Source of the DNA: an uncultured Myxococcales bacterium | Lineage (GTDB): Bacteria > Myxococcota_A > Bradymonadia > UBA7976 > VGTA01 | Direction: 5' to 3' | NCBI GenBank assembly: GCA_937146725.1 | Contig: CAKZRU010000041.1 | Coordinates: 5,154 to 69,153 of the forward strand | Length of the DNA stretch: 64,000 nucleotides | Shown: one piece after another, positions 1 to 15,124 of the stretch | Position numbering within the stretch: position 1 is the stretch's first letter | Layout of the letters: every line of letters starts with the position of its first letter | Program-made: the position numbers and the translations under genes | The notes under the pieces: model-generated | Told to the model about the DNA's origin: nothing | Database searches by the model: none | The model's input: only the letters and a program-made list of their open reading frames with translations

Positions 1-603
1 GACTGCTAATTGAATCCCACGACCCCAACCAGCGGGCATGGCAAGATGAATCCAAGCCACAGCTAAGTGTTCAAGTGTAGCCGCATTACGCAAAGGTCCA
101 AGATCAATCGGGCGCATGTTTAAACTGCTCAGTAGTTTTGACACTGTCGCTTTGGCCTCAGCATTATCTCCTGCAAACAGATGATCAAGTGGTCGTTCAG
201 CACTTGCTGTAATCAGGCTGTGTTCTGCACCAAAAGTATTAAAGGCCTTGATGACATAAGCATCAGGCAGTAGCGCTTGTAGCCGAGCGGCACCGCTGGT
301 AAAGCCTTCTGGTGGATTATGTACCGGGCCACCTTCCCAACCTAATGGGTTACTCGCATCAATTACAACCTTACCTGCTAATCCCAAAGTTGGTAAAAGA
401 TCTTGTGCCGCCGCCGAGGGAATTGTTGAAATCACAACATCAACTCCCTCAGCACTTTGGGAAACGGTCGCCCCGGTTTCGGTCAGCAAGTCACTGACCT
501 TATCAGGATTTCGTACTCCAATTGTCACCGTATGATTCGCATGAGCTAAAGCTCGAATGATATTACCACCAACATTACCTGCCCCAATCACATGTACCTT
601 CAT
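1..603 (-). CDS. NAD(P)-binding dinucleotide-binding oxidoreductase (COG2085 / F420-dependent NADP reductase-like); C-terminus lies beyond window start (partial)
   Basis: Reverse-complement of 541-603 translates MKVHVIGAGNVGGNIIRALAHANHTV... (Rossmann GxGxxG motif at N-terminus); ORF continues without stop to position 1; ATG at 603-601. Confidence 0.7.
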   Translation of the reverse strand, partial: MKVHVIGAGNVGGNIIRALAHANHTVTIGVRNPDKVSDLLTETGATVSQSAEGVDVVISTIPSAAAQDLLPTLGLAGKVVIDASNPLGWEGGPVHNPPEGFTSGAARLQALLPDAYVIKAFNTFGAEHSLITASAERPLDHLFAGDNAEAKATVSKLLSSLNMRPIDLGPLRNAATLEHLAVAWIHLAMPAGWGRGIQLAV

Positions 604-955
604 TTTGAACCTTCTTTTATGAATCTCTACTGACTTATTGTGACTCTTGACTATGAGTCATACATCATAAATAGAGAATATTTAGATTATTTAGCTTATT
701 TAGAGACTGTACAAAGATCAAGAGTCACAAGCAGGCTAAATCATTAAGTTCAGATGTTAGACCTTGTTGATCTAAACTGTGGATCTAAGTTAACAACTCT
801 TGTCAACAGACACTTTACAGTGATCACTTTTTGCTTTGTTTGTTTTGAGTTATTTCCTTTAATAATAGATATTTAGTAATTTTTTAGCTTGTGGCATAGC
901 TTTTGCTGTTATTTACAGGTGTTCCTAAGTTTATTCAATCGTAAAGGGAGTTGTC

Positions 956-3433
956 ATGAAGCAGCCCAATGTAAGACAAACACTTAAACAGTCCACTCAA
1001 TCTTATCATCTAGTCAACGCCAAGTTAGCCTTACTCATAAGCATACTTATCGCCACAATGCTTGGCGCTTGCCAAGATGAAAATTCCTCTGAAGCCATCG
1101 GTTCGTTTAATGAGCCTAATAGTAACTACAATGGTGATGGATATGACGATTCTGAAGCAGCCGCCGGTACCTCAATGCCTTCTGGAATCCCAAATGATAA
1201 TTCGCAAGATGTATCAGCAGAGGGTCAGACACAAGACTCAAATAGAGATGTTGAAGAACCAGAAGAGCCAGAAGAGCCAGAAGAAGAACCCACCGAGCTT
1301 TTGTGCGAGGATCAAGGGCCGACTCAACTTTTCCTTTCGGCGGATGACTCCAATTCACAAGCTTCACCGGTTTTGGCTAGATCTCTGATTCAGCAAAAAC
1401 GCTTTGTACCTGCCAAGTCGGTGCGTACATATGAGTTTCTTAATTATGCAGAATTTGACTATCCGGCACCTAGTGAAGGCCTCGCTTTATATCCAGAAAT
1501 GAGACTGGCACAGGGAGAGCATGCCGGTGATGGTAATTACCAATTACAAATTGGTTTAAGAGCACCTCAATTAGAGCTCAATGATTTACCTCCTATGCAC
1601 TTGGTTTTGGTCTTAGACAGTTCAGGCTCTATGAATGGTTCTGCCTTTCAAACCTTAAAATCAACCGTGCAAACCCTGAGCAGAAACTTACGTTCTAATG
1701 ATCGTATTTCAGTGGTTAAGTTAGATGCTAATCCAGAGCTTCTTTTAAATCACCAAGCTGTTGATGAGGCTGAGATTAACGAGCTACTTGATGAATTAGT
1801 GCCCAATGGTATCACCGCTTTTGGTCAAGCAGCAGAAATTGCCTATGCCCAAGCTTTAGAGCATCAGCGTGAGGGTAGCAAAACCCATGTCATTTTAATT
1901 TCAGATGGTGGGGCCAATGCCAATGACGATGAGTTGGCCCAGATTTCCGAAATGGCAGGCACCTCACAACAGGCCGGTATCTTTTTAATGGGTGTAGGTG
2001 TAGGAGAGGGCTTTAATGATGGCCTAATGGATGCAGTCACCGATGCCGGTAAAGGCTCTTATGTATTTATTGATTCCCAAGCAGAAGCCGAGACGATTTT
2101 TAATACTCAATTTGTGAATCATTTTTCTGTAGCGGCTTTGGATGTGCAAGTCAGTCTTACCTTGCCCTCTTTGTGGTCCATGCAGGTCTTTTTTGGTGAG
2201 CAGATCTCTACTGTGGCTTCCGAGGTACAAACTCAAAATCTAAGTCACAATGACCAAATGATTTTCAATCAAGTGCTGAACCACTGCGACCCACAAGCGA
2301 TTGATGAAAGTGCTGAATGGTTAGCACAGGCAAGCTACACAGACCCCCAATCTGGCGAGCGTATGGAAAGCGAAATCCGTTTTACCTTTGCTGACTTAAT
2401 GGAAAATACAGCACACAACCTCGAAAAAGGATCGGCTATTGTCTCTTTTGCCGAAGGACTGAAGAGCTTGTTTCCTTTAAGAGCTAAACCCTATCAAGCG
2501 CCTCGTACATTGATTGAAGATTCTTCTGATGATCAAGATTCTCGTTCAGTTATTGAGATTTGTGAAGAGGTAGAAGCAATGCTTAATCAGGCCCAAGCTT
2601 CTTTAACCGAAGAAGACTTAGAGTTAAGTCTATATCAAGAGTTAATCACAACTTACTGCCAAACAATCACCGTAGGCCAATCTCCTGATCGTGGCTGTGA
2701 TTGCAAGCAAGATGCTAGCCCTCGACAAGCCTTAGGTATTTGTGAAAGCGATCTTGTTGAAGATGATGAGGTTCTTGGAATCACTGGTACTTCTGTAGAA
2801 GTCTTGGCGAATCTCAGAGATGGCAGTGATGCCTATGCAAGACAAGGATGCCAACTTTTGGCTCTTTCTTCAGGCGATATCCAATCTGAAGATAAGTTTA
2901 GTGGTGAATTACCATCTCAACAAAGCAATACCATTTTACCAAAGTTTAGTGGTGTCGAGCGTATTTCTCTTGACCGTAGCAATACCTTTGACATGACTCA
3001 ATACAAGGTCACCTTAACCGCGCCCTCTGATGCAAAAAGCTTTTCTTTTGATTTCCGTTTCTTTTCGGCAGAGTTTCCCGAGTACATAGGCTCACAGTTC
3101 AATGATGCTTTTTACGCCATCCTAGAGGCGGACAGCACCAATAACGGAGAGCCCACCAATATTTCCTTTGATGCTGTTGGTAAGGCGATTGAAATAAATA
3201 ATAATTACTTTGCCTCTCCCTTTCATCCTTGTAGTGAAAGAGGCACCGGCTATGTTCGTGGCGGTTCAACATGCTGGTTAAGAACCAGTTGGCCTATCCA
3301 AGCCGGAGAAACCTTTACGATCACTTTCTCTGTGCATGATACCGGCGATCAAATCTACACTTCCACAGTACTTTTAGATCACTTTAAGTTCCACAAAGAT
3401 GCCGCTGTTGGCATGACTGACCCATTGAACTAA
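956..3433 (+). CDS. von Willebrand factor type A (vWA) domain lipoprotein, YfbK-like, with acidic low-complexity linker and C-terminal Cys-containing beta-rich domain
   Basis: Lipobox LLISILIATMLGAC near N-terminus; vWA MIDAS region HLVLVLDSSGSMNGS...ITAFGQA...HVILISDGGAN; upstream vWA-N-like RFVPAKSVRTYEFLNYAEFDYP; EEPEEPEEPEEEP acidic stretch. Confidence 0.8.
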   Translation: MKQPNVRQTLKQSTQSYHLVNAKLALLISILIATMLGACQDENSSEAIGSFNEPNSNYNGDGYDDSEAAAGTSMPSGIPNDNSQDVSAEGQTQDSNRDVEEPEEPEEPEEEPTELLCEDQGPTQLFLSADDSNSQASPVLARSLIQQKRFVPAKSVRTYEFLNYAEFDYPAPSEGLALYPEMRLAQGEHAGDGNYQLQIGLRAPQLELNDLPPMHLVLVLDSSGSMNGSAFQTLKSTVQTLSRNLRSNDRISVVKLDANPELLLNHQAVDEAEINELLDELVPNGITAFGQAAEIAYAQALEHQREGSKTHVILISDGGANANDDELAQISEMAGTSQQAGIFLMGVGVGEGFNDGLMDAVTDAGKGSYVFIDSQAEAETIFNTQFVNHFSVAALDVQVSLTLPSLWSMQVFFGEQISTVASEVQTQNLSHNDQMIFNQVLNHCDPQAIDESAEWLAQASYTDPQSGERMESEIRFTFADLMENTAHNLEKGSAIVSFAEGLKSLFPLRAKPYQAPRTLIEDSSDDQDSRSVIEICEEVEAMLNQAQASLTEEDLELSLYQELITTYCQTITVGQSPDRGCDCKQDASPRQALGICESDLVEDDEVLGITGTSVEVLANLRDGSDAYARQGCQLLALSSGDIQSEDKFSGELPSQQSNTILPKFSGVERISLDRSNTFDMTQYKVTLTAPSDAKSFSFDFRFFSAEFPEYIGSQFNDAFYAILEADSTNNGEPTNISFDAVGKAIEINNNYFASPFHPCSERGTGYVRGGSTCWLRTSWPIQAGETFTITFSVHDTGDQIYTSTVLLDHFKFHKDAAVGMTDPLN

Positions 3434-3503
3434 TGTGAACTTTTTTTCAGCTAGATAAAGCCTTCAATAAGAAAAACGGAGTCATAAAAGCAAGCAAACA
3501 GCC

Positions 3504-4559
3504 TTAATTACTAGTTGCATTCAAACGATAGCTTACCCCTGATAAATCAACTTGGCCCATTGCCATAAAGGAGTTCATCACTGAGGCCAATGGATCAAGT
3601 ATAATATAATAGCGAATCCCAGCTGATAATTGTATATCCAAAACTGCTTGGTGAGAAGGTTGTACATCCTTTGTAGCCATCCCTTCTACGGAAAACTGAC
3701 AGCCCAAAGGTTCTTGATCTATTTGTCGACTCTCACCTGGGCAAGTACTAAGTACTATGATTGAAACTGGGATATCAAACTGACCAACACTGACTCTTCC
3801 GGTAAAGCGTACACTCATATCAATTGGAAGTCTTATGCTGTAAATCATGTCATAAGAGCGAGCCGAATCTTCTATCAGATGTGCTGGCAAGCAGTGAGTA
3901 TTTGTATAAAGCTGATCTGCAAATTGTCCGTTTGGGACCACACTTGATGAATCAAGTACAATAGGTGAAGCACAAGAGGCGGGTGTTTCGGGAGCCGGAA
4001 AGTCAAAAGAGTAAAAGCAGTAATTGTCTACACACTCATATTGCTCACAGTCACCGCTTTGTAAGCAACTTCTTTGGGCAAGTGCCATACAGCGGCCAGC
4101 CTCACATACTGATCGGTCGTAGCAAAGCTGTTCATCACAGCAAGTACTTTGATCGTTAGGACTAGGATCTTCATCAATATGTCCATCGCAGTCATCATCT
4201 CTTTGATTACAGATTTCTCCTATTTGTTCGGGTTGCCAAACGCCTGCAACGCAACGTTCCCAACCACATTCTTCTGCTTCTCTTTGCTCATTTTCATCAC
4301 ACTCTGCTGTCTGCATATCAGAAGCTGACATATCAGTAGTTGACATATCAGTAGTTGACATATCTATAGCCGACATATCATCCATCATCCCTGTGTCCCC
4401 ATTGGGTAATAAAAGAGGGACTTCAATCGTTTGTCGTCGGCCGACATCTACAAGATTGACCGAATTTTCATCTTCACAGGCGCAGGTTAAAACAGTAAAC
4501 AATAAAAGCAGTAGACTTGTTGCTAACCTCATCATGGTCGACCTCAAAGTTCGTTTCAA
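3504..4559 (-). CDS. secreted Cys-rich lipoprotein with two 4-Cys modules and a C-terminal PPC-like (pre-peptidase C-terminal-like) beta-sandwich domain; small paralog of the 8139-12998 giant protein
   Basis: Lipoprotein signal LLLLLFTVLTCAC; DMSTT/DMSAS repeats; modules CDEQLCYDRSVCEAGRC and CLQSGDCEQYECVDNYC; C-terminal IVLDSS...DMIYSIRL...GIRYYIILDP resembles PPC-domain pattern D.vL.l...G.YY..v. Confidence 0.6.
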   Translation of the reverse strand: MKRTLRSTMMRLATSLLLLLFTVLTCACEDENSVNLVDVGRRQTIEVPLLLPNGDTGMMDDMSAIDMSTTDMSTTDMSASDMQTAECDENEQREAEECGWERCVAGVWQPEQIGEICNQRDDDCDGHIDEDPSPNDQSTCCDEQLCYDRSVCEAGRCMALAQRSCLQSGDCEQYECVDNYCFYSFDFPAPETPASCASPIVLDSSSVVPNGQFADQLYTNTHCLPAHLIEDSARSYDMIYSIRLPIDMSVRFTGRVSVGQFDIPVSIIVLSTCPGESRQIDQEPLGCQFSVEGMATKDVQPSHQAVLDIQLSAGIRYYIILDPLASVMNSFMAMGQVDLSGVSYRLNATSN

Positions 4560-4782
4560 GCGATCACTTGTATGCTTGAGTTAAACATAAAAGTTAAGCT
4601 CAAGATGTATGTGAAGCTATTTCGCATGCGATTACCTCTCAAGTTTTCTTAAAGCTTTTTTATCATAAGACCATAAACTTATATAGCTTTTGTACTCACG
4701 ATCGAAAAAATCTTAAGAGTATGTTAACTTGAGATCAATGTTCATGTGTCATTTGATTATTTTGGCCAAAAGGATATCGTTT

Positions 4783-5634
4783 ATGCCCAAGGGTAGCCCA
4801 ATCTCTTTGATAGAACTCACTTTGAGCGAACTTGCTCAGCACCACAATGCCTTACCCAATATGCTAGATGAGTCTTGCACTGCGGTCATTGTTCGTGAGG
4901 CCTTTCCCAAAAGCCTTATGCAAAAGGCTTGTGAGCGCTTAAGTGCCAAAGAACTAGAATCTCAACTTACCTCACCCAATCAAGGAATGCCTGGTGGAGA
5001 ACTTCTTACATTAGGCGCGGCGGCCACGCCCACCATGACTGCTTTAAACGGGCCTAAAAACGAGATTTACATCGAAAGTGCTCAACATGCACAAGAATGG
5101 GAAAATCTTATATTTGGAGAGTTTAGCGTATCTGCACAAGTGGCCAAAATATTGGCTGGACTCAACCAAAATAAACCCGCTCAACCAGCCCCTTTTCAAG
5201 ATCCTCACTTAGGCCAATGGCTTCCCTTTAATTATCGAATATTACCCCCTAATACACAGATCTACTCTCACCATGATATGCATTATCGCTTGCCTATTTA
5301 TGACCTATTGGCGGATGGATATAACCAAAAAAAGCTTTTAAGTTGGTTTATCACCGGACAAGAAGCACTGTCAGGTGGCGAACTCATTATTTATGGCTTA
5401 CGCAGTGATGATCCTCATCCGCCTATGTTAGCTAATCGCTTTGTTGATACTGAAGCCTTAGAAAAAGAGTATTACAAGCTCAACTTAGATCTTAAAGCAG
5501 GTGATTTCTTGATTTTTAATTCAGGTTTACATGTGCACAGAGTCAGTGCTGTACAGCAAAAGCAATCACGGATCACCTTTGGGGGCTTTGCAACCTTTGC
5601 TCTTGACCAAAGTCATATGATTTATTGGAGCTAA
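4783..5634 (+). CDS. hypothetical protein, probable 2OG-Fe(II) oxygenase superfamily (prolyl-hydroxylase-like HxD...H...R arrangement)
   Basis: Start moved from 4729 to ATG 4783 preceded by AAGGA (4769-4773, 9-nt spacer); motifs SHHDMHY (HxD), GLHVHRV (distal His), SRITFGG (Arg) in the expected spacing for 2OG oxygenases. Confidence 0.5.
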   Translation: MPKGSPISLIELTLSELAQHHNALPNMLDESCTAVIVREAFPKSLMQKACERLSAKELESQLTSPNQGMPGGELLTLGAAATPTMTALNGPKNEIYIESAQHAQEWENLIFGEFSVSAQVAKILAGLNQNKPAQPAPFQDPHLGQWLPFNYRILPPNTQIYSHHDMHYRLPIYDLLADGYNQKKLLSWFITGQEALSGGELIIYGLRSDDPHPPMLANRFVDTEALEKEYYKLNLDLKAGDFLIFNSGLHVHRVSAVQQKQSRITFGGFATFALDQSHMIYWS

Positions 5635-5794
5635 AGATGACACAATCAATCACTTGTAAATAAGCAATAAACTTGATGCTTATCATGACATTTTGCTTTA
5701 ATTGATCTTGCTTGGCTCTCTAGTTTTGCTTTAGATGCCTCAACGACCAAACTTTATCTTATTTATGACTTTCGATACGGACGAACCTTACCTT

Positions 5795-8071
5795 ATGAAG
5801 CTTTATCAACTCCTTGTCTTATCCTGCTCGCTTTTTTATTTGAGTTCAGCTCATGCCCAAGCTACTTCGGAAGGTAAGGTAAGCGCTCCAAAGACAACTC
5901 AAACCCCAAAACAAAAGGCTAGCAAGACGCAAGAAGCCAGTAAGACGCAAGACGCCAGCAAGAAGCAAGAAGCTAGCAAGACACAAGGTTCTGAGCCTAA
6001 AGAAAAAAAGGCAGAGAACTCTGTTGCTAAAAAAGATCAACAAGAAACAAGTTCGCTAGTACAAAGCCCACAAGTACAAGCAGACCTAGCAACACCCAAA
6101 GCTAAAGTAAGCATTGGTCAAGAACGTCGCTTACCCAATGACCGAGTGGCGGTTCAACAAAGAGCGATGAGTCGAGAGGGCTCTATTGGTTTACATGAGG
6201 TGAAATCGGCTGATGTTGGTCCACAAGGCACTCTGCGCTTTGGTGTGCAAGTCAGTGGCTTTAGTTCGGATCAGTTTTTAACTTTAGGCACCAAAGAGCG
6301 CTTCTCAAGAGGTGACTTTTCTTTATCATATACGCCAATCAACTTTGTTGAAGTCTACGCGAATACCCGCTCATTAAGCTATACAAATCCCTTAGGGGCA
6401 CCAAGTTATGTTCAAGGTCAAGGTGATCTTAAATTAGGTGCTAAGGTGGGACACTTTTGGGGTACGATTGGAGCCGGTTTATCTTTAGCCGCTCAGCTTT
6501 TTAGTGATCCGGAAGGAGGCGCTTGGCGAGGCGAGGCGACTAACTTTGAAATCAGCGCTTTGTTTACAACTGATTTAACCAAAAAGGCAGCGCCGATTCC
6601 CTTTAGGTTTTTGCTTGATGTAAGCTTTACCAAAGAAAACAGTGAAGCCTTGACAGATTTTTTGGCCCAAGAACCAAGCCTAATCCAAGAATGGGGCTAT
6701 CAATCAGGTCGCTACGATCGTTTAATGCTCAATTTTGGTATTGAAGTGCCTACCGAATATGTGAGCCCTTTTATCGAGTATCACATTGGTACACCTTTCT
6801 TGGTGGAAATGCCTCGCATGGGTGAGTATTCCCGTATCTTTGCCTTTGAGTCAGTTCCCAACTACATGGCCGGTGGTCTGAGAGGCTTTCCAAGACCGGA
6901 CATTGCAATTGAGCTCGGGGGGACTTTAGGCTTTAGCGATGCACCCTTTACCGGTGTGCCGGCAACCCCACCTTGGAGCATTTGGGGCGGTGTGAGCTAT
7001 ACTTTAGATCCAAGACCTGAAGTAATTGAACGAGAGATTAAAATCGAGCCTCCTCCGGCACCCAAGGTTGAACCTAAACCTTTGGGTGCTTTGTTAACTC
7101 TTATGGTCGTGGATGCCGTTGATCAAAAGGCGATCGAGGGCGCAACATTAAGGTTTAACAATGAAGAACTCAGCCCACAATACAGTGATGAGCAAGGGCG
7201 TTTTATTGGCTATCGCCTAGCACCTAAAAAGTATATCATTGAGGTGTCGGCTGAGGGCTATTTAAGCAAAAAAGTCCGCTTGGGTATCAAAAAAGGGCAA
7301 GAGGAGCGCAAGGCTAGGCTCAAACTCAAGCGAGATCCGCAACAAAAGCTCGCTCGCTTTGCCGTCAGCTTAAAACTTAAGCCGGAAGAAGACGCAAACT
7401 TGGCCCGCTTTGAGTTGAGTTTTATTGGCCCAGAAGCACATAAAACCACTTTGAGCGCCTCTACTCCATTTAGCAAAGAGCTATTACCAGGCGACTATGT
7501 TCTACTGATTAACGATGCTGAGGGACGTAGCTATCATGAGTTAATTACTTTGGGTAGTGGGGGTGAAGGGACTCGCGAGATTACGCTTGATATGATTAAA
7601 GGGGTTCAAGAAGCCGATGATAACAATGCGCAAACCAAGACTTCCAAAAAAGCCAAAAAGTCATCTAACGAAGCACTTAAGGGCTCGACTAAGTGGCTTA
7701 AATATAACTTAAAACGTAAATATTTAGCCACCAAGCGAGGCATTAGTTTTAATGGTGAAGGCGCAAGTCTGACTAAGTCCGGTAAGCGTATTGTTCGTGG
7801 TTTGGCCGAATTCCTAAACAGTGAAACCAGAATCCAAAAGATCGTTTTAATGATCCATACTCATAGTCGTGGCGATCTTAAAGCTGACAAGCGCTTGGGC
7901 TATCAACGCGGGCAAGCGATTAAGAAACTACTAGTCGCCGAGGGCGTAAATGCAAGCCGAGTGTCTGTATTTAGCTATGGAAGTGAAAAGAGCATTGACT
8001 CAAACCTAACCAGACGTGGCCGACAGCGTAATCAAAGAGTCATGATGCGCATTAAATCAGTAGATTTATAA
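5795..8071 (+). CDS. OmpA-family outer membrane protein with N-terminal ASKTQ repeats, CarboxypepD_reg-like domain and C-terminal OmpA/MotB peptidoglycan-binding domain
   Basis: Signal peptide MKLYQLLVLSCSLFYLSSAHAQA (start moved to ATG 5795); 18-nt tandem repeats encoding ASKTQE x4; C-terminal TKRGISFNGEGASLTKSGKRIVRGLAEFL...RLGYQRGQAIKKLLVAEGV...RRGRQRNQRV typical OmpA-like domain. Confidence 0.75.
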   Translation: MKLYQLLVLSCSLFYLSSAHAQATSEGKVSAPKTTQTPKQKASKTQEASKTQDASKKQEASKTQGSEPKEKKAENSVAKKDQQETSSLVQSPQVQADLATPKAKVSIGQERRLPNDRVAVQQRAMSREGSIGLHEVKSADVGPQGTLRFGVQVSGFSSDQFLTLGTKERFSRGDFSLSYTPINFVEVYANTRSLSYTNPLGAPSYVQGQGDLKLGAKVGHFWGTIGAGLSLAAQLFSDPEGGAWRGEATNFEISALFTTDLTKKAAPIPFRFLLDVSFTKENSEALTDFLAQEPSLIQEWGYQSGRYDRLMLNFGIEVPTEYVSPFIEYHIGTPFLVEMPRMGEYSRIFAFESVPNYMAGGLRGFPRPDIAIELGGTLGFSDAPFTGVPATPPWSIWGGVSYTLDPRPEVIEREIKIEPPPAPKVEPKPLGALLTLMVVDAVDQKAIEGATLRFNNEELSPQYSDEQGRFIGYRLAPKKYIIEVSAEGYLSKKVRLGIKKGQEERKARLKLKRDPQQKLARFAVSLKLKPEEDANLARFELSFIGPEAHKTTLSASTPFSKELLPGDYVLLINDAEGRSYHELITLGSGGEGTREITLDMIKGVQEADDNNAQTKTSKKAKKSSNEALKGSTKWLKYNLKRKYLATKRGISFNGEGASLTKSGKRIVRGLAEFLNSETRIQKIVLMIHTHSRGDLKADKRLGYQRGQAIKKLLVAEGVNASRVSVFSYGSEKSIDSNLTRRGRQRNQRVMMRIKSVDL
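5918..5989 (+). repeat. 18-nt in-frame tandem repeat x4 (encodes ASKTQEASKTQDASKKQEASKTQG) inside the OmpA-family gene
   Basis: gctagcaagacgcaagaa / gccagtaagacgcaagac / gccagcaagaagcaagaa / gctagcaagacacaaggt read directly. Confidence 0.8.
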
Positions 8072-8138
8072 TGTACCTAAAACGAGTTTTGTCAATGAGC
8101 GTGGCGTGGGCTAATTTATTTACCAAAAGGGTAAAACG

Positions 8139-11100
8139 ATGATCAACTATCTAATCAATACGCAAAAGCTTTTGAGTCGTATGCACCTGTTTTTTATGGG
8201 CAGTATGATCATACTCAGTGCCTTAGGCTGTGGTCGAAGTGAGCTTCAATGCGATACCCACTTGGACTGTGCCAATGGTGAGGCCTGTATTCAATCTCAA
8301 TGTCTGACCGGCCCAGCCTGTGTAGAAGGGCTTTGCCCAAGCACCCAAGAATGCGTCGCTGAAATTTGCATAGATCGAGAATTACTCAAAAGCGAATGTG
8401 ATGAGCTTAATGCTTGTCCTGAAGGCTTAAGTTGCATCGAAGGCCGTTGTTTGCTGACCTGCGAAGGCGAGCAATGTGTGACGCCACCTCCAGAATGCAC
8501 TGAGGATGTTGAATGTGGTGATGGGCGAATTTGCCAAGACTTTAGCTGTGTTGAAGGTTGCAATTTTAACATACAATGCCCAGAAAATTATGACTGTGTG
8601 GATAATACTTGTGTCGCCTTGGCCTGTGTTGATGTTGACTGTCCTCAGGGCTTTGAATGTGTAGAGGATATGTGTGTTCCCAATGAAATCTGCGAGGAAA
8701 ACAGTGATTGTCCGGAAGGCTTAGTATGCGATTTAGGCCTCTGCCTTGATGTACCTTGTCAACAGGATGATGACTGTCTACAAGGCCAGCAATGTGTAAA
8801 TAATCAATGTATTGCCGCCCCTCAGTGCTTAAACTCAGCTGAATGTCCACGAGGCTTTGACTGCGTTTTAGGTGTATGTCGCTTTAATCCGGAATGTAAC
8901 TCGGATGATGATTGTGATGAGGGTGAAATCTGTTCAGCTAATGCCTGCATTCCATTTTTGGCTTGTATGGATAACAGTGACTGCCCACCCAACTTTGATT
9001 GCGCCGAAGGGCGCTGTGAGTTTAGTGGGCGTTGCAGTGATGACTTAGATTGTCCACCCATTGCCCTTTGCTTAGAAGAAGTCTGTGTCGAGAATGCTTG
9101 TCGAACGAGTCAAGAATGCGGAGTTGGCTCTGAATGTCTTGATAACCGCTGTGTGGAAGCTCCTGAATGTAGGGTCAATGGAGACTGTCCTTTTGGGACT
9201 CGCTGTGAGGATAGTCGCTGTGTAGAAGCTCCTGCTTGCCAAGTAAACACCGATTGTTTAGCTGGTGAATCATGTATCAATAATGTGTGTACGCCAAGTG
9301 GTTGTGAAAGCGCGGGGATTACCTGTCCACCCAATACCAACTGCATAAATGATGTATGTGCACCAAGTTCATGTCGAATCGATCAAGATTGCCCTCGTTC
9401 ATTCTCTTGTATCGATCAAGTTTGCTTGCCTACCTTATGTGAGCAAGATGCTGATTGTGGCTTAGGGTCAATCTGTCGGGCAGGGCGTTGTTTCTTCCCA
9501 GCGAGATGTATGAGTGATAATGAATGTGCTGGTGGTGAGCGGTGCTTGGCGGGTGTATGTACTCCGCAAGGCTGTAGTGTTGACCGAGACTGCCTAGATA
9601 ATGAGCAATGTGAAGCAGGTCGCTGTGTGGCACTAAGCTGTGTAAATGACATCGACTGTGGCCCCGAAGTTTACTGTATTGCCAACCAATGCATTCCGGA
9701 TTTAGTTTGCCAAAGTGCCGATGATTGTCCTGGTGGCATTCCCTGTGTGAATCGTCGCTGTCGCCTTGGTGATAATTGTGAGCGTGACAGTGACTGTCCC
9801 GTTGGCTTGGAATGTGCCTTTGGTGAATGCTTGGAAGTGCCGGTTTTAGAGTGCGCGCAGGACAGAGATTGTGCTCAAGGTCAGCGCTGCGAGTTTGGAC
9901 AGTGCACCGGAGAGGTGAATCTTTGCCAAAGTGACTTTGATTGTGGACCGGGCTTCACTTGTTCGGGTGGAGTATGTGTAAGCAATGATTGTATGAATGA
10001 TAGTCAATGCCCTGCCAATGAGATTTGTCAAGCGGGTCTTTGTGTACCAGCACCGGAATGTCGAGTCAGTACAGATTGTGGGCCAAACGAAGAATGTCGT
10101 AGTGGAAGCTGTGTCTTTACGGGTGAATGTCGTAATAACTTAGAATGCCAAGACCCCTTTATTTGTGTTGATTTTGCCTGTGTGCTCGATGGCGCTTGTG
10201 GACCTGATAACCCTTGCCCAAGTGGAGAGACCTGTATTAATCGCACCTGTATTCCAAATAATGGCTGTATACAAGATAGTGATTGTGGCTTGGGTGAAAG
10301 CTGTCGAGCGGGTCGCTGTCTCTTTACAGGAGAATGTCGTCTACCAAGAGATTGTCCGGTTAACTTTACCTGTCGCAACTTTGTTTGTGAGGCACTAAAC
10401 CAGTGTGTTGCTGACGTGGATTGTGGACCAGGTTCAAGCTGTGTGAATGGCCAGTGTGTATTTACGGGAGAATGTCAAAATGACATGGAATGTACTGGCT
10501 CTGATCGCTGTGTTGACTTCCTTTGTGTGCCGGCTTTACAGTGTGGACCAGGCCGCTTGTGTCCAGTAGGCGAAGAATGTATGGACGGCCTTTGTGTATT
10601 TAATGGCGAATGCCGAAATAATAACGACTGTCCTGCACTCAACTCATGTATCAATAACCAATGCGAAGAAACCGGACGCTGTGATCGAGATAGTGATTGT
10701 GCGGCAGGGCTTGTTTGTGATGCGCTGAGTCAACGCTGTGTTGCAGATATTGACTGCGCAAATGATGCCCAATGTGAAGCAGGGCAACAGTGTATTGGTG
10801 GGCTGTGTCGTGATGTGCTTGGATGTACACGAGATGCCGATTGTGAGTCGGATCAATACTGTGAGTTAGCTGCAAACTTATGCTTGGCTCGTCCGGATTG
10901 CTTTACCGATCAAGAATGTGCGGCAAATGAGCGTTGTGATCAAGGAAGCTGCGTGCCTACTTCTTGTAGTAGTGATGATGATTGTAATGCCGAGCAAAGC
11001 TGTGCAGCCGGTCGCTGTATTCCACGTCTTTTCTGTGGTGATGACTCCGATTGCTTTATTCCAGGCACACAGTGCATCAACAACGTTTGCGAAGTGCCCA

Positions 11101-12998
11101 ATGGCTGTACTAATGATGCTGAATGTGGACCATTTCAAGCGTGTTTAGCAGGTGCGTGTATTCCTGCTCCACCAAGTATCTGTCAACGAGATGAGGACTG
11201 TCCGGGTAGCTTGGTCTGCGAATTTGGACTTTGTATTCCCAATCAAGGCTGCGGTGGTGATAATGATTGCCCAAGCGGTCAAGTTTGTGAAGCTGAAACC
11301 TGCATTCCGGCACCAAGTGCTTGTCGCATTGATGCAGAATGTGCCAATGGTCAAGTCTGTGATCTTGACTTAGGGGGTGTATGCGTTGATGCACCAGCAT
11401 GTCGAGTCAATGAAGATTGTAATTTAGGAGAAATCTGTCGGGGCGCCTTGTGTGTGGCCGGCTGCGTAATTAGCGATCGCTGTCCACAGGGTACACGCTG
11501 TATAAATAATTTCTGCCAAGAAGGCTTAGGCTGTAATAGTAATGATGAATGTATGTCGGGTTCGGTCTGTGATTTAAGCACTGGCGAATGTGTAGTGGGA
11601 GAGTGTAGCCAAGACAGTGATTGTGCCAATGGGGCAGTATGCTCAAACTTTAGCTGTGTTGACCCAAGTGCCTGCACAACAAGCCAAGATTGTCCGGTAG
11701 GCCAGCTTTGCTTAAGCGGAAGTTGTGTTGAAAGTGATCGCTGTGACCCAAATGTAGAAATCATAGATATTGTTTTGGGCGGGATTGGTGATGAAATTGG
11801 ACTCAGTGTAGATACCAGTGGTCGTGAAAATCAATATCAGGCCAGCTGTGGGGGTGGTGCTCAATCGGGAGATCAGCCAATTGCCGTACGCGTCAATGCC
11901 ATTGGCTTATTTACGGCAACAGTACTCAGCGCTCAAGGTTATGATACTGTACTCTTTATGCGTTCTCGCTGTGAAGTGGAAGACAGCCAAATTGTCTGTA
12001 ATGATGATAGTAATGGCCTGCTGAGTGAGATCAGTACACCTATTCTGACACCGGGCATCTATTATGTATTTCTTGATGGCTTTGGATCAGCACGAGGCGT
12101 GGCCGAATTACAATTTAGCCTGACTTCACTGACAGAATGTACACAGGATAGCGATTGTGAAGGTGCTCCATGTGTTGATGGAGTATGTGGGGCTCCCGAA
12201 TGCGTTGGCGATATTGACTGTGCGCCCAACGGAATTTGTAATGCGGGTATTTGCGTAGATGGCACTCGCTGTCAAGTAGACAGTCAGTGTGCGGCCGATG
12301 AAATCTGTGAAAATCGAAGCTGTGTACCGGCTGAATGTCTACAAGATACCGATTGTGGTGTACGCCAAATCTGTAATGAAAATCGCTGTGAGCGACCAGA
12401 ATGTCGCCAAGATGCAGACTGCCCGAGTGGAAACATTTGTGATGTAGGTCGCTGCATTGAGAGCTGTCGAGTCGATGCCGACTGTGATGATATCTTTGCG
12501 ATTTGCGAGGCCAACAGCTGTGTTCCGGCAGAATGTTTAAGAGATGATCAATGTGCTCAGGATGAAAGCTGTGATGCCGGACGTTGTATCAGTGGTAATG
12601 GCGGTGGTGGAACCGGTCAAATTGGTGATCCATGCGTGAATGATAGTTTGTGTAGCAGTGATTTAATTTGTGAAAATGCTCAATGTGAGTCTGCCGAAGG
12701 CCTATGTGCAGAAGTAACCGACTGTGGTGGAACCGGCGCCTGTCTAGGTGGTAACTGTGTACCAGCACCTAGCTGCCAAACCGCCGATGATTGCAGTGGA
12801 TTAATTCCTATTCCTATTCCCCTACTTTGTATTAACAGCCAATGCCGATCGGCTTTTGTCCAATGTAGCTTAAACCAAGATTGCGGTGATGGACAAAGTT
12901 GTGCCTTTGGTGTTTGTCTGCCGATTCCAGCGAATGAATGCTTAAGAGATACAGACTGCGGTAATGGTCGCTTATGTGAGAATGGCTCATGTCAGTAG
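8139..12998 (+). CDS. giant (1619 aa) secreted cysteine-rich repeat lipoprotein: ~60-65 tandem 4-Cys modules (C-x3-4-[DN]-x-[DE]-C-x2-G-x2-C-x4-5-C) with one embedded PPC-like beta-sandwich domain (~aa 1205-1330)
   Basis: Lipobox MIILSALGCGRSE; module period ~22-25 aa repeated throughout (e.g. CRIDQDCPRSFSCIDQVC, CEQDADCGLGSICRAGRC, CSVDRDCLDNEQCEAGRC); insert IVLGGIGDEIGLSVD...DTVLFMRSRC...GIYYVFLDGFG...LQFSL matches PPC-domain pattern. Confidence 0.8.
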   Translation: MINYLINTQKLLSRMHLFFMGSMIILSALGCGRSELQCDTHLDCANGEACIQSQCLTGPACVEGLCPSTQECVAEICIDRELLKSECDELNACPEGLSCIEGRCLLTCEGEQCVTPPPECTEDVECGDGRICQDFSCVEGCNFNIQCPENYDCVDNTCVALACVDVDCPQGFECVEDMCVPNEICEENSDCPEGLVCDLGLCLDVPCQQDDDCLQGQQCVNNQCIAAPQCLNSAECPRGFDCVLGVCRFNPECNSDDDCDEGEICSANACIPFLACMDNSDCPPNFDCAEGRCEFSGRCSDDLDCPPIALCLEEVCVENACRTSQECGVGSECLDNRCVEAPECRVNGDCPFGTRCEDSRCVEAPACQVNTDCLAGESCINNVCTPSGCESAGITCPPNTNCINDVCAPSSCRIDQDCPRSFSCIDQVCLPTLCEQDADCGLGSICRAGRCFFPARCMSDNECAGGERCLAGVCTPQGCSVDRDCLDNEQCEAGRCVALSCVNDIDCGPEVYCIANQCIPDLVCQSADDCPGGIPCVNRRCRLGDNCERDSDCPVGLECAFGECLEVPVLECAQDRDCAQGQRCEFGQCTGEVNLCQSDFDCGPGFTCSGGVCVSNDCMNDSQCPANEICQAGLCVPAPECRVSTDCGPNEECRSGSCVFTGECRNNLECQDPFICVDFACVLDGACGPDNPCPSGETCINRTCIPNNGCIQDSDCGLGESCRAGRCLFTGECRLPRDCPVNFTCRNFVCEALNQCVADVDCGPGSSCVNGQCVFTGECQNDMECTGSDRCVDFLCVPALQCGPGRLCPVGEECMDGLCVFNGECRNNNDCPALNSCINNQCEETGRCDRDSDCAAGLVCDALSQRCVADIDCANDAQCEAGQQCIGGLCRDVLGCTRDADCESDQYCELAANLCLARPDCFTDQECAANERCDQGSCVPTSCSSDDDCNAEQSCAAGRCIPRLFCGDDSDCFIPGTQCINNVCEVPNGCTNDAECGPFQACLAGACIPAPPSICQRDEDCPGSLVCEFGLCIPNQGCGGDNDCPSGQVCEAETCIPAPSACRIDAECANGQVCDLDLGGVCVDAPACRVNEDCNLGEICRGALCVAGCVISDRCPQGTRCINNFCQEGLGCNSNDECMSGSVCDLSTGECVVGECSQDSDCANGAVCSNFSCVDPSACTTSQDCPVGQLCLSGSCVESDRCDPNVEIIDIVLGGIGDEIGLSVDTSGRENQYQASCGGGAQSGDQPIAVRVNAIGLFTATVLSAQGYDTVLFMRSRCEVEDSQIVCNDDSNGLLSEISTPILTPGIYYVFLDGFGSARGVAELQFSLTSLTECTQDSDCEGAPCVDGVCGAPECVGDIDCAPNGICNAGICVDGTRCQVDSQCAADEICENRSCVPAECLQDTDCGVRQICNENRCERPECRQDADCPSGNICDVGRCIESCRVDADCDDIFAICEANSCVPAECLRDDQCAQDESCDAGRCISGNGGGGTGQIGDPCVNDSLCSSDLICENAQCESAEGLCAEVTDCGGTGACLGGNCVPAPSCQTADDCSGLIPIPIPLLCINSQCRSAFVQCSLNQDCGDGQSCAFGVCLPIPANECLRDTDCGNGRLCENGSCQ

Positions 12999-15124
12999 TC
13001 GCCAAAAAACTATCTGCTTTAATTGAAAATGCAGGGTTTTCTTATGAGTTCTTAAATATAGCATCTACGAGTGATCCTTTGGTTCAGGAGGTCACACTCG
13101 ACTTAGATGAGGTGAGCTTAGGCGTACTGTTTATTGCAAGAAAGCTTTGGTATGTAGACACTCATCAGCAGATTGATGAGGCTATACAAAAGGGGGCAGT
13201 GGCGGTTTTAGTCAGCGACTCAAGTCAAGTGAGTGAAAAGACCTTACACAATACGCAGGTGCCCATTGTGCTTTTAGAGCATGAAGATCCAAGCTTGGGG
13301 CTCATTTGCGCGCGCTTTTATGAGCATCCCTGTGCACAGCTTAAAGTGTATGGGGTGACCGGTACCAACGGAAAAACTTCAGCGGTCACCTATTTGGCAG
13401 ACTTACTCACCGCATTAGGGGAACGAGTAGCAGTAATTGGTACGGTGGAATACCGCTTTGAACATCGGCGCTTAGCCGCAGCAAACACCACACCGGATGC
13501 CTTGGTGATTCAGCGCTTTGCAAGACATGCACTCGACCTAGGAGCGACTGCTTTAACCCTAGAGGTCAGCTCTCATGCGCTTAGCCTTGATCGGGTGGCT
13601 GGGGTTTATTTTGATGCTGTGGGCTTTACTTCTTTTGGGCGAGATCACTTAGATTTTCATGGTAGCTTAGAGGGCTATCGCAATGCCAAGGGGCGTCTTT
13701 TTGATGATTACTTAATGAACTCGCTTCAACATGGTAAAACACCTATTGCTGTGGCACATGATGATGTTGAAGGCCAAGCGATGTTAGGCCGCACACCAGG
13801 TGGCGTCGAAAGAGTCTATTGTCATGTGCAAACAAAAGTAACGTCTGAAACAAAAGTAACATCTGAAACAAAGTCCTTAAGCTTAGTCTCTGATCACTCT
13901 CATAGTCTTAAGCTTAATATTCAAGATGAAGTCAGCTTAGCAGGTATTACGCTTGAAGGTACTTATGCAACTCAGCAAGACAACACTGAGCTACCGGCCA
14001 TCAAGGTTGGACTCATTGGAGACTACCATCCGGCAAATGCTGCGATTGCTTTGGGTATGCTACTTAAAACTCACCAAGAACGTTTTTTGGATGCTTGGTT
14101 CAGTTTGCAAAAGACGCGGGGCGTACCAGGGCGAATGGAAAGAGTCATACTACCCGATGCATTATCTTATGAAACTCGGGTCGCTTTGGTAGACTACGCG
14201 CATACGCCTGATGCGATTACTCGTGCGATTCAAGCCATTAAAGCGGTGCATCAAGGGGCACTCTCAGTTATCATCGGCTGTGGGGGTGATCGTGACCGGG
14301 GTAAACGACCTCAAATGCTGAAAGCTGCCTTACAAGAAGCAGATCAGGTTTGGCTAACGAGTGATAATCCTCGGAATGAGTCACCACAGCAAATTATCGA
14401 TGATGCTTTGAGCTTGGCTGAGCTTGAACCCGCACTTTATGCTGAGTTCAAGGCTAAACTCGTGGGCAAAATTGTCGATCGACGTGAATGTATCGCACAA
14501 GCATGGCAAGGGCTTACCAAAGAGGGCGCGCTACTGATTACCGGCAAAGGACATGAATCCTATCAAGAAGTTCAAGGGCGTCGTTATCGTTTACAAGATC
14601 ACGAAGCACTGAGAGCAGGAGCTTGGGCGGAACATAAGCAACTTGATTTACAGCATGTACCTTATCTACAGAGTTGTCTCTTTAATGATACTACTCTAGA
14701 TGAGAATAATCATTTGGCTCGACTTTTACTTTTACTCCGAGAGGCCTGCTTTAGACCGAATGGATTGGTGTTACGCTGTTTAAAACAGACAGACGGTGAA
14801 GAGCCTAGTTTATCCACAGATCACTTCATCATTCATTGCCATAAAGCCGAAAGCTCTACTTTTGAGTCTTATACAAACTTTAGTGATTTCTTGTGGACTC
14901 AATTAGCTGGATTTAGTCCACAACATAAAGAGATTCATGTTTTAGTGTCTAGATTTGTGGGGTTTGGACAAGTGTCTGGATTTATTGATGAAATCTTAGG
15001 TATGGCTAATGAGTTTGCCTACCCTCATGCAGAACTAACGATCAAAACTGATTTAAGTGATTGCAAGCCGACCGGTGGATGGTCAAAGCAAAGTACCGGA
15101 CCTAAAATTCCGTCTTTAGTTTAG
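12989..15124 (+). CDS. murE: Mur ligase family protein, MurE-like (UDP-MurNAc-L-Ala-D-Glu:meso-DAP ligase) with an internal insertion and a ~230-aa C-terminal extension of unknown function
   Basis: P-loop GVTGTNGKTS; DYAHTPDA; TSDNPRNE (DNPR motif, meso-DAP-type MurE); N-terminal domain GVLFIARKL...DEAIQKGAVAVL; ATG 12989 overlaps stop of upstream gene (12996-12998) by 10 nt; extension after ...EALRAGAWAEHKQLD has no Mur ligase motifs. Confidence 0.7.
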   Translation: MSVVAKKLSALIENAGFSYEFLNIASTSDPLVQEVTLDLDEVSLGVLFIARKLWYVDTHQQIDEAIQKGAVAVLVSDSSQVSEKTLHNTQVPIVLLEHEDPSLGLICARFYEHPCAQLKVYGVTGTNGKTSAVTYLADLLTALGERVAVIGTVEYRFEHRRLAAANTTPDALVIQRFARHALDLGATALTLEVSSHALSLDRVAGVYFDAVGFTSFGRDHLDFHGSLEGYRNAKGRLFDDYLMNSLQHGKTPIAVAHDDVEGQAMLGRTPGGVERVYCHVQTKVTSETKVTSETKSLSLVSDHSHSLKLNIQDEVSLAGITLEGTYATQQDNTELPAIKVGLIGDYHPANAAIALGMLLKTHQERFLDAWFSLQKTRGVPGRMERVILPDALSYETRVALVDYAHTPDAITRAIQAIKAVHQGALSVIIGCGGDRDRGKRPQMLKAALQEADQVWLTSDNPRNESPQQIIDDALSLAELEPALYAEFKAKLVGKIVDRRECIAQAWQGLTKEGALLITGKGHESYQEVQGRRYRLQDHEALRAGAWAEHKQLDLQHVPYLQSCLFNDTTLDENNHLARLLLLLREACFRPNGLVLRCLKQTDGEEPSLSTDHFIIHCHKAESSTFESYTNFSDFLWTQLAGFSPQHKEIHVLVSRFVGFGQVSGFIDEILGMANEFAYPHAELTIKTDLSDCKPTGGWSKQSTGPKIPSLV

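Follow-up and report, generated by a model that had tools for sequence, protein, structure and literature searches.

The giant cysteine-rich protein encoded between 8139 and 12998 bp (+ strand) of the analysed window, a 64,000-nucleotide stretch of DNA from an uncultured Myxococcales bacterium, was resolved into two catalogued building blocks, namely tandem four-Cys modules of the DUF7107/TIGR04201 type and a single PPC-type beta-sandwich domain. Both blocks belong to known and widespread families that are functionally unstudied, and both are often met with in the giant extracellular proteins of Myxococcota-like bacteria; the finding is in this respect a result of annotation. As for its role, we consider it somewhat probable that the protein forms a long lipid-anchored stalk at the cell surface, which would display a binding domain and serve as an adhesin or as a component of a matrix or coat.

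Architecture of the cysteine-rich lipoprotein

The gene is a single unbroken ORF of 4.86 kb coding for 1,619 amino acids (ORF list and translation) with a signal peptide and a lipobox, and the preliminary description was right in treating it as real. The following features were located in it.

8139–8231, + strand: signal peptide and lipobox (aa 1–31, ...ILSALG-C31, residue +2 being Gly), from the translation
8250–11726, + strand: N-terminal array of 50 four-Cys modules of DUF7107/TIGR04201 type (aa 38–1196), from the Cys-spacing parse and HMM matches
8460–8477, + strand: half module CEGEQC (aa 108–113), a hairpin with the C3–C4 pair only, from the Cys-spacing parse
9459–11438, + strand: central block, modules 18–46 (aa 441–1100), where conservation is highest within both the protein and the entire gene cluster
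11727–12137, + strand: PPC/collagen-binding-domain (CBD)-type beta-sandwich insert (aa 1197–1333) with four invariant Cys (C1202, C1237, C1278 and C1287)
12138–12995, + strand: C-terminal array of 12 four-Cys modules (aa 1334–1619), the protein ending in a module

The lipobox ...FFMGSMIILSALG-C31 was found by inspection to carry the PROSITE PS51257-type pattern of bacterial lipoproteins, from which the product is predicted to be a lipoprotein with an N-terminal lipid anchor. An AAGGG ~8 nt before the ATG may be an SD-like site. No MYXO-CTERM or other C-terminal sorting tag was matched in NCBIfam, and the protein ends as ...CENGSCQ inside a module. The total of 255 Cys (15.8%) falls short of the more than 300 claimed earlier; this odd number is made up of the lipobox Cys and 254 others, which are enough for 127 disulfides. 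The protein contains 267 acidic residues and has a net charge of about -191.

The Cys-spacing parse gave 62 full modules and one half module with a period of 23 aa, in agreement with the ~60–65 modules first estimated. The exact spacing C-x5-C-x5-C-x4-C was present in 51 of the 62, and in the consensus C-x2-D-x-D-C-P-x-G-x2-C-x2-G-x-C-V a conserved D-x-D directly precedes the second Cys. The protein matched Pfam DUF7107 (PF23416) with 243.4 bits (E = 1.5e-73, 15 reported stretches; gathering threshold 24.6 bits) and the 22-aa Cys repeat TIGR04201 "Myxo_Cys_RPT" of NCBIfam with 27.1 bits (E = 3.1e-6, 8 stretches), marginally above the curated cutoff of 25 bits. Judged by these profile matches, the module is of a catalogued type, a member of DUF7107 and, marginally, of TIGR04201. 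The idea of a secreted, lipid-anchored and disulfide-rich repeat protein is supported, whereas the view of the module as lineage-specific or uncatalogued had to be given up. Because DUF7107 is without known function, the module does not coincide with a well-characterised Pfam repeat of known function, and the preliminary description survives on this point. The families it had named as candidates (DUF4215, laminin-EGF, TNFR and Dickkopf) gave no above-threshold match: DUF4215 and the TIGR02232 Myxococcus cysteine-rich repeat did not match the protein at E ≤ 0.1 in Pfam and NCBIfam, and EGF, laminin-EGF, TNFR and Dickkopf gave neither an HMM match nor a significant fold match to solved members. 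An AF2 model of six modules (pLDDT 84.4, pTM 0.36) predicted a short helical turn and a beta-hairpin as the module fold; a pLDDT of 84 with a pTM of 0.36 would fit confidently folded modules in an elongated, non-globular chain.

The high Cys content, the strongly negative charge and the D-x-D of each module could also be those of a metal-binding or redox-buffering protein, in which Cys and acidic residues would act as ligands for Ca2+ or thiophilic metals in a metallothionein-like or mineral-binding manner, and the 351-aa paralog described below shows a sub-threshold MopE-type metal-motif match (19.5 bits against a cutoff of 27). We find this decidedly unlikely. The strict four-Cys periodicity, the 254 non-lipobox Cys and the export by a signal peptide point to structural disulfides; the Cys are spaced 4–5 residues apart throughout with no C-x-C or C-x-x-C, folded hairpin modules were predicted confidently by AF2, and no metallothionein was matched in Pfam or NCBIfam. 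Ca2+ binding by the D-x-D turn would in any case be compatible with a surface stalk and not an alternative to it.

The non-repeat insert of ~137 aa with its four Cys has the PPC/CBD beta-sandwich fold, and its homology to solved PPC domains is detectable. The earlier identification as PPC-like thus holds for fold and homology, but the protein had no match to PF04151 (PPC) at E ≤ 0.1 and stayed below the gathering threshold of that model. The insert belongs to a very large Cys-bearing PPC subfamily (about 41,500 cluster representatives) with four invariant Cys and the motifs SCGG, DTVLxVR, ACNDD and YFVFVDG, and PF04151 was matched by just 3 of 46 copies of this subfamily at E ≤ 0.01. By the same Cys and motifs the window copy differs from the PPC domains of PF04151 and of the clostridial collagenases ColG and ColH; it also differs from the collagen-binding domains of ColG/ColH in being embedded in a stalk and not attached to a protease.

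Gene integrity, selection and neighbouring genes

One independent ENA assembly (L006) is interrupted within the Cys-rich gene and the low-coverage contig L002 carries a frameshifted copy, as might be expected if the giant gene were an assembly artefact or a decaying repeat-built pseudogene. The chance of this is negligible, and the artefact was ruled out on several grounds. Besides the uninterrupted ORF, the DNA repeat copies are merely 60–80% identical, which makes a collapse unlikely, and TRF detected no tandem-repeat array in the gene DNA; the repeats are indeed diverged and old, as had been supposed. The L006 assembly agrees with window positions 1–10084 at 99.5–99.9% identity, and with the first 1.9 kb of the gene at 99.5%. 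An intact ortholog was found in MAG O_MB67 (CALSSE01) as an ORF of 1,676 aa, in which the N-terminus reads LSLSG-C and continues with the GR(S/T)E(L/I)QC of the window protein, and the half module is kept as CEGDTC. That this ortholog is 70% identical and conserves all 255 Cys argues against an artefact, and so does the selection acting on the gene.

The gene showed a pN of 0.14–0.28 against a saturated pS and is under strong purifying selection. Identity to the ortholog in the central block was 75% at non-Cys positions, and the pN there was 0.144 with a saturated pS of 0.83, compared with a pN of 0.351 for the adjacent MurE; the central modules evolve more slowly than MurE. Variability is greatest in the modules nearest the membrane, where a two-module indel also lies, as expected of a spacer. 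The conservation of the central modules beyond that of MurE is not explained by a passive spacer, and it is probable that these modules themselves take part in specific interactions.

The Cys-rich gene is flanked by the following genes, and no rRNA was found in the window.

3504–4559, - strand: small lipoprotein of 351 aa with a lipobox-like LTCAC, two four-Cys modules and a C-terminal beta-rich domain
4729–5634, + strand: WelO5-family 2OG/Fe(II) oxygenase (PF22814 at 7.3e-37) with an H-x-D (HHD) motif, upstream and co-directional
5735–8071, + strand: outer-membrane-type protein of 778 aa with a signal peptide, a CarboxypepD_reg-like domain and a C-terminal OmpA peptidoglycan-binding domain
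12989–15124, + strand: MurE-type ligase of 711 aa (TIGR01085, 375.6 bits against a cutoff of 257.3), downstream

The preliminary description had extended the shared architecture to the neighbours. The two modules of the 351-aa lipoprotein were recovered, and its C-terminal domain may be a diverged PPC-like domain; the comparison with PPC is only suggestive, with weak profile matches and an hhalign probability of 5%, while four Cys, an FD motif and a YYIILD motif line up. The vWA lipoprotein does not end in a PPC-like or module-bearing domain, as its C-terminal domain is choice-of-anchor L (NF038133, 51.9 bits against a cutoff of 27). Homologs of the 351-aa protein came only from the same or near-identical organisms, and neither its gene nor the vWA gene is present at the locus of the sister MAG (L001). 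The shared architecture is local to the source genome.

The four-gene order of oxygenase, OmpA-domain protein, Cys-rich lipoprotein and MurE is conserved in the sister MAG, where the oxygenase is 49% identical to L001:6615-7502, the OmpA-domain protein 61% identical to L001:7671-9956 and MurE 52% identical. The 778-aa protein matched Pfam OmpA at 6.9e-13 as well as OmpA and Pal domains in the PDB. Its gene is co-directional with the Cys-rich gene, and the 67-nt gap between them contains no terminator-like site; murE starts 10 nt before the Cys-rich gene ends, an overlapping arrangement that recurs in the sister MAG, and a Peptidase_M15_4 D-Ala-D-Ala carboxypeptidase is encoded near the locus, likewise in L002. 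This arrangement would suit a periplasmic or envelope structural element that acts with the OmpA-domain protein as a spacer or ruler, or as a peptidoglycan-associated scaffold linked to wall synthesis. We hold such a function to be unlikely, since the MurE/OmpA synteny was seen only in this narrow lineage, and 62 extended modules in a row would greatly exceed the width of the periplasm. The distant homologs examined adjoin giant adhesin-like proteins (CarboxypepD_reg+VWA+TSP3, discoidin+TSP3, fibrinogen_C and He_PIG/cadherin). Moreover, PPC/CBD domains, like the TIGR04201 repeats (PMC3325183), are known from secreted or surface proteins.

The conserved oxygenase two genes upstream in both genomes raises the further possibility that the modules are its substrates, hydroxylated at Asp or Asn in the way AspH acts on EGF domains, in a cluster for modification plus display. 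The enzyme has the H-x-D motif of hydroxylases and not the H-x-G motif of halogenases, and every module offers a conserved D/N beside a Cys. The idea is nevertheless very improbable: by its sequence the enzyme lacks a signal peptide, but its supposed target is exported and would take up its fold only after leaving the cytoplasm; no 2OG oxygenase adjoins the five distant homologs examined, and adjacency is a weak argument when the two genomes are closely related.

Relatives and comparison with known systems

The combination of module and PPC domain recurs in dozens of giant proteins elsewhere. The DUF7107/TIGR04201 proteins of Myxococcota share with the window protein the four-Cys module of about 22–23 aa, with both curated cutoffs passed, and are likewise giant secreted proteins or lipoproteins that are very acidic and Lys-poor. 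The same modules separate 2–25 copies of the PPC-like domain in these relatives and are also found alongside SRCR, LTD, Kazal, subtilase and beta-helix domains. Two features set the window protein apart: its unbroken run of 50 modules is unusually long, and it has just one globular domain embedded among the modules. In most close relatives, by contrast, many PPC-like domains are interspersed with small groups of modules. Its source genome has 43% GC, whereas the amino-acid composition of most relatives suggests high GC.

A close studied parallel is TraA, the receptor for kin recognition in outer-membrane exchange of Myxococcus xanthus, with its OmpA-domain partner TraB (PMC3325183, PMC6372800). 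TIGR04201 was defined from the Cys-rich repeats of TraA (PMC3325183), which tolerate partial deletion and, by hypothesis, are a stalk that presents the recognition domain (PMC6372800). The window locus resembles this system in the repeats and in the adjacent gene for an OmpA-domain envelope protein (PMC3325183, PMC6372800). TraA, however, carries a PA14-like variable domain at its N-terminus, ~9 repeats and a MYXO-CTERM tag at its C-terminus, while the window protein combines a lipid anchor at the N-terminus with 62 modules and a PPC-type domain and bears no tag at the other end. No PA14 was matched in Pfam or NCBIfam, the lipobox leading straight into the modules; TIGR03901 (MYXO-CTERM) had no match in the window protein; and the OmpA-domain neighbour scored 25.7 bits against the cutoff of 700 for TraB NF033763, in its OmpA part only. 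Orthology to TraA/TraB was rejected for want of a PA14 domain, a MYXO-CTERM tag and a TraB-level match. The gene order is also reversed relative to traAB, and the OmpA-domain and Cys-rich genes do not overlap.

Small tandem disulfide-stapled modules forming extended extracellular stalks are also the design of the eukaryotic TNFR CRDs, EGF-like, Dickkopf_N and Dumpy DPY repeats, which were the best, though non-significant, neighbours in fold and sequence. A precedent for surface-exposed lipoprotein adhesins with Cys-rich stalks is provided by CglB/CglD of M. xanthus (bioRxiv 10.1101/2023.10.19.562135).

Proposed role and significance

In the role proposed here, the protein would be exported as a lipoprotein and held at its N-terminus by the lipid anchor. 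Each of the 62 tandem mini-domains, a short turn and a beta-hairpin, would be closed by two disulfides, and together they would build an extended, very acidic, disulfide-stapled and semi-rigid stalk of great length, in which the PPC/collagen-binding-type beta-sandwich inserted after module 50 may be the ligand-binding unit. The modules would act as proposed for the Cys-rich stalk of TraA and as they may do in relatives, where they alternate with PPC-like, SRCR, LTD or enzyme domains, and the upstream OmpA-domain outer-membrane protein may tie the assembly to peptidoglycan. We infer that the cysteines are oxidised, that the protein is surface-exposed, rod-like and adhesive, and that the OmpA-like protein is its partner. 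With 12 modules following it, the PPC-like domain falls short of the distal tip, a placement that counts against the display of the domain by a stalk. No consistent OmpA-type partner was seen beside the distant homologs examined, which likewise counts against the proposed role.

A bolder reading, distinctly improbable in our view, takes the four-gene unit as a dedicated TraAB-like envelope-anchored fibre system outside the classical myxobacteria, with the conserved central modules forming a specific interaction surface. These modules might then serve homotypic cell–cell recognition, lateral packing in a surface lattice or Ca2+-dependent stiffening, and might also be Asp/Asn-hydroxylated as EGF domains are by AspH.

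To our knowledge, no structure has been solved for the module, and no function has been tested for it apart from the "stalk" hypothesis for TraA. The unbroken run of 50 copies in this protein is a clean object for measuring module mechanics. The Cys-bearing PPC subfamily mostly escapes the present models of Pfam and NCBIfam, a gap in annotation that deserves to be filled. The stronger purifying selection on the central modules than on the neighbouring essential MurE suggests that such "spacers" take part in specific interactions.

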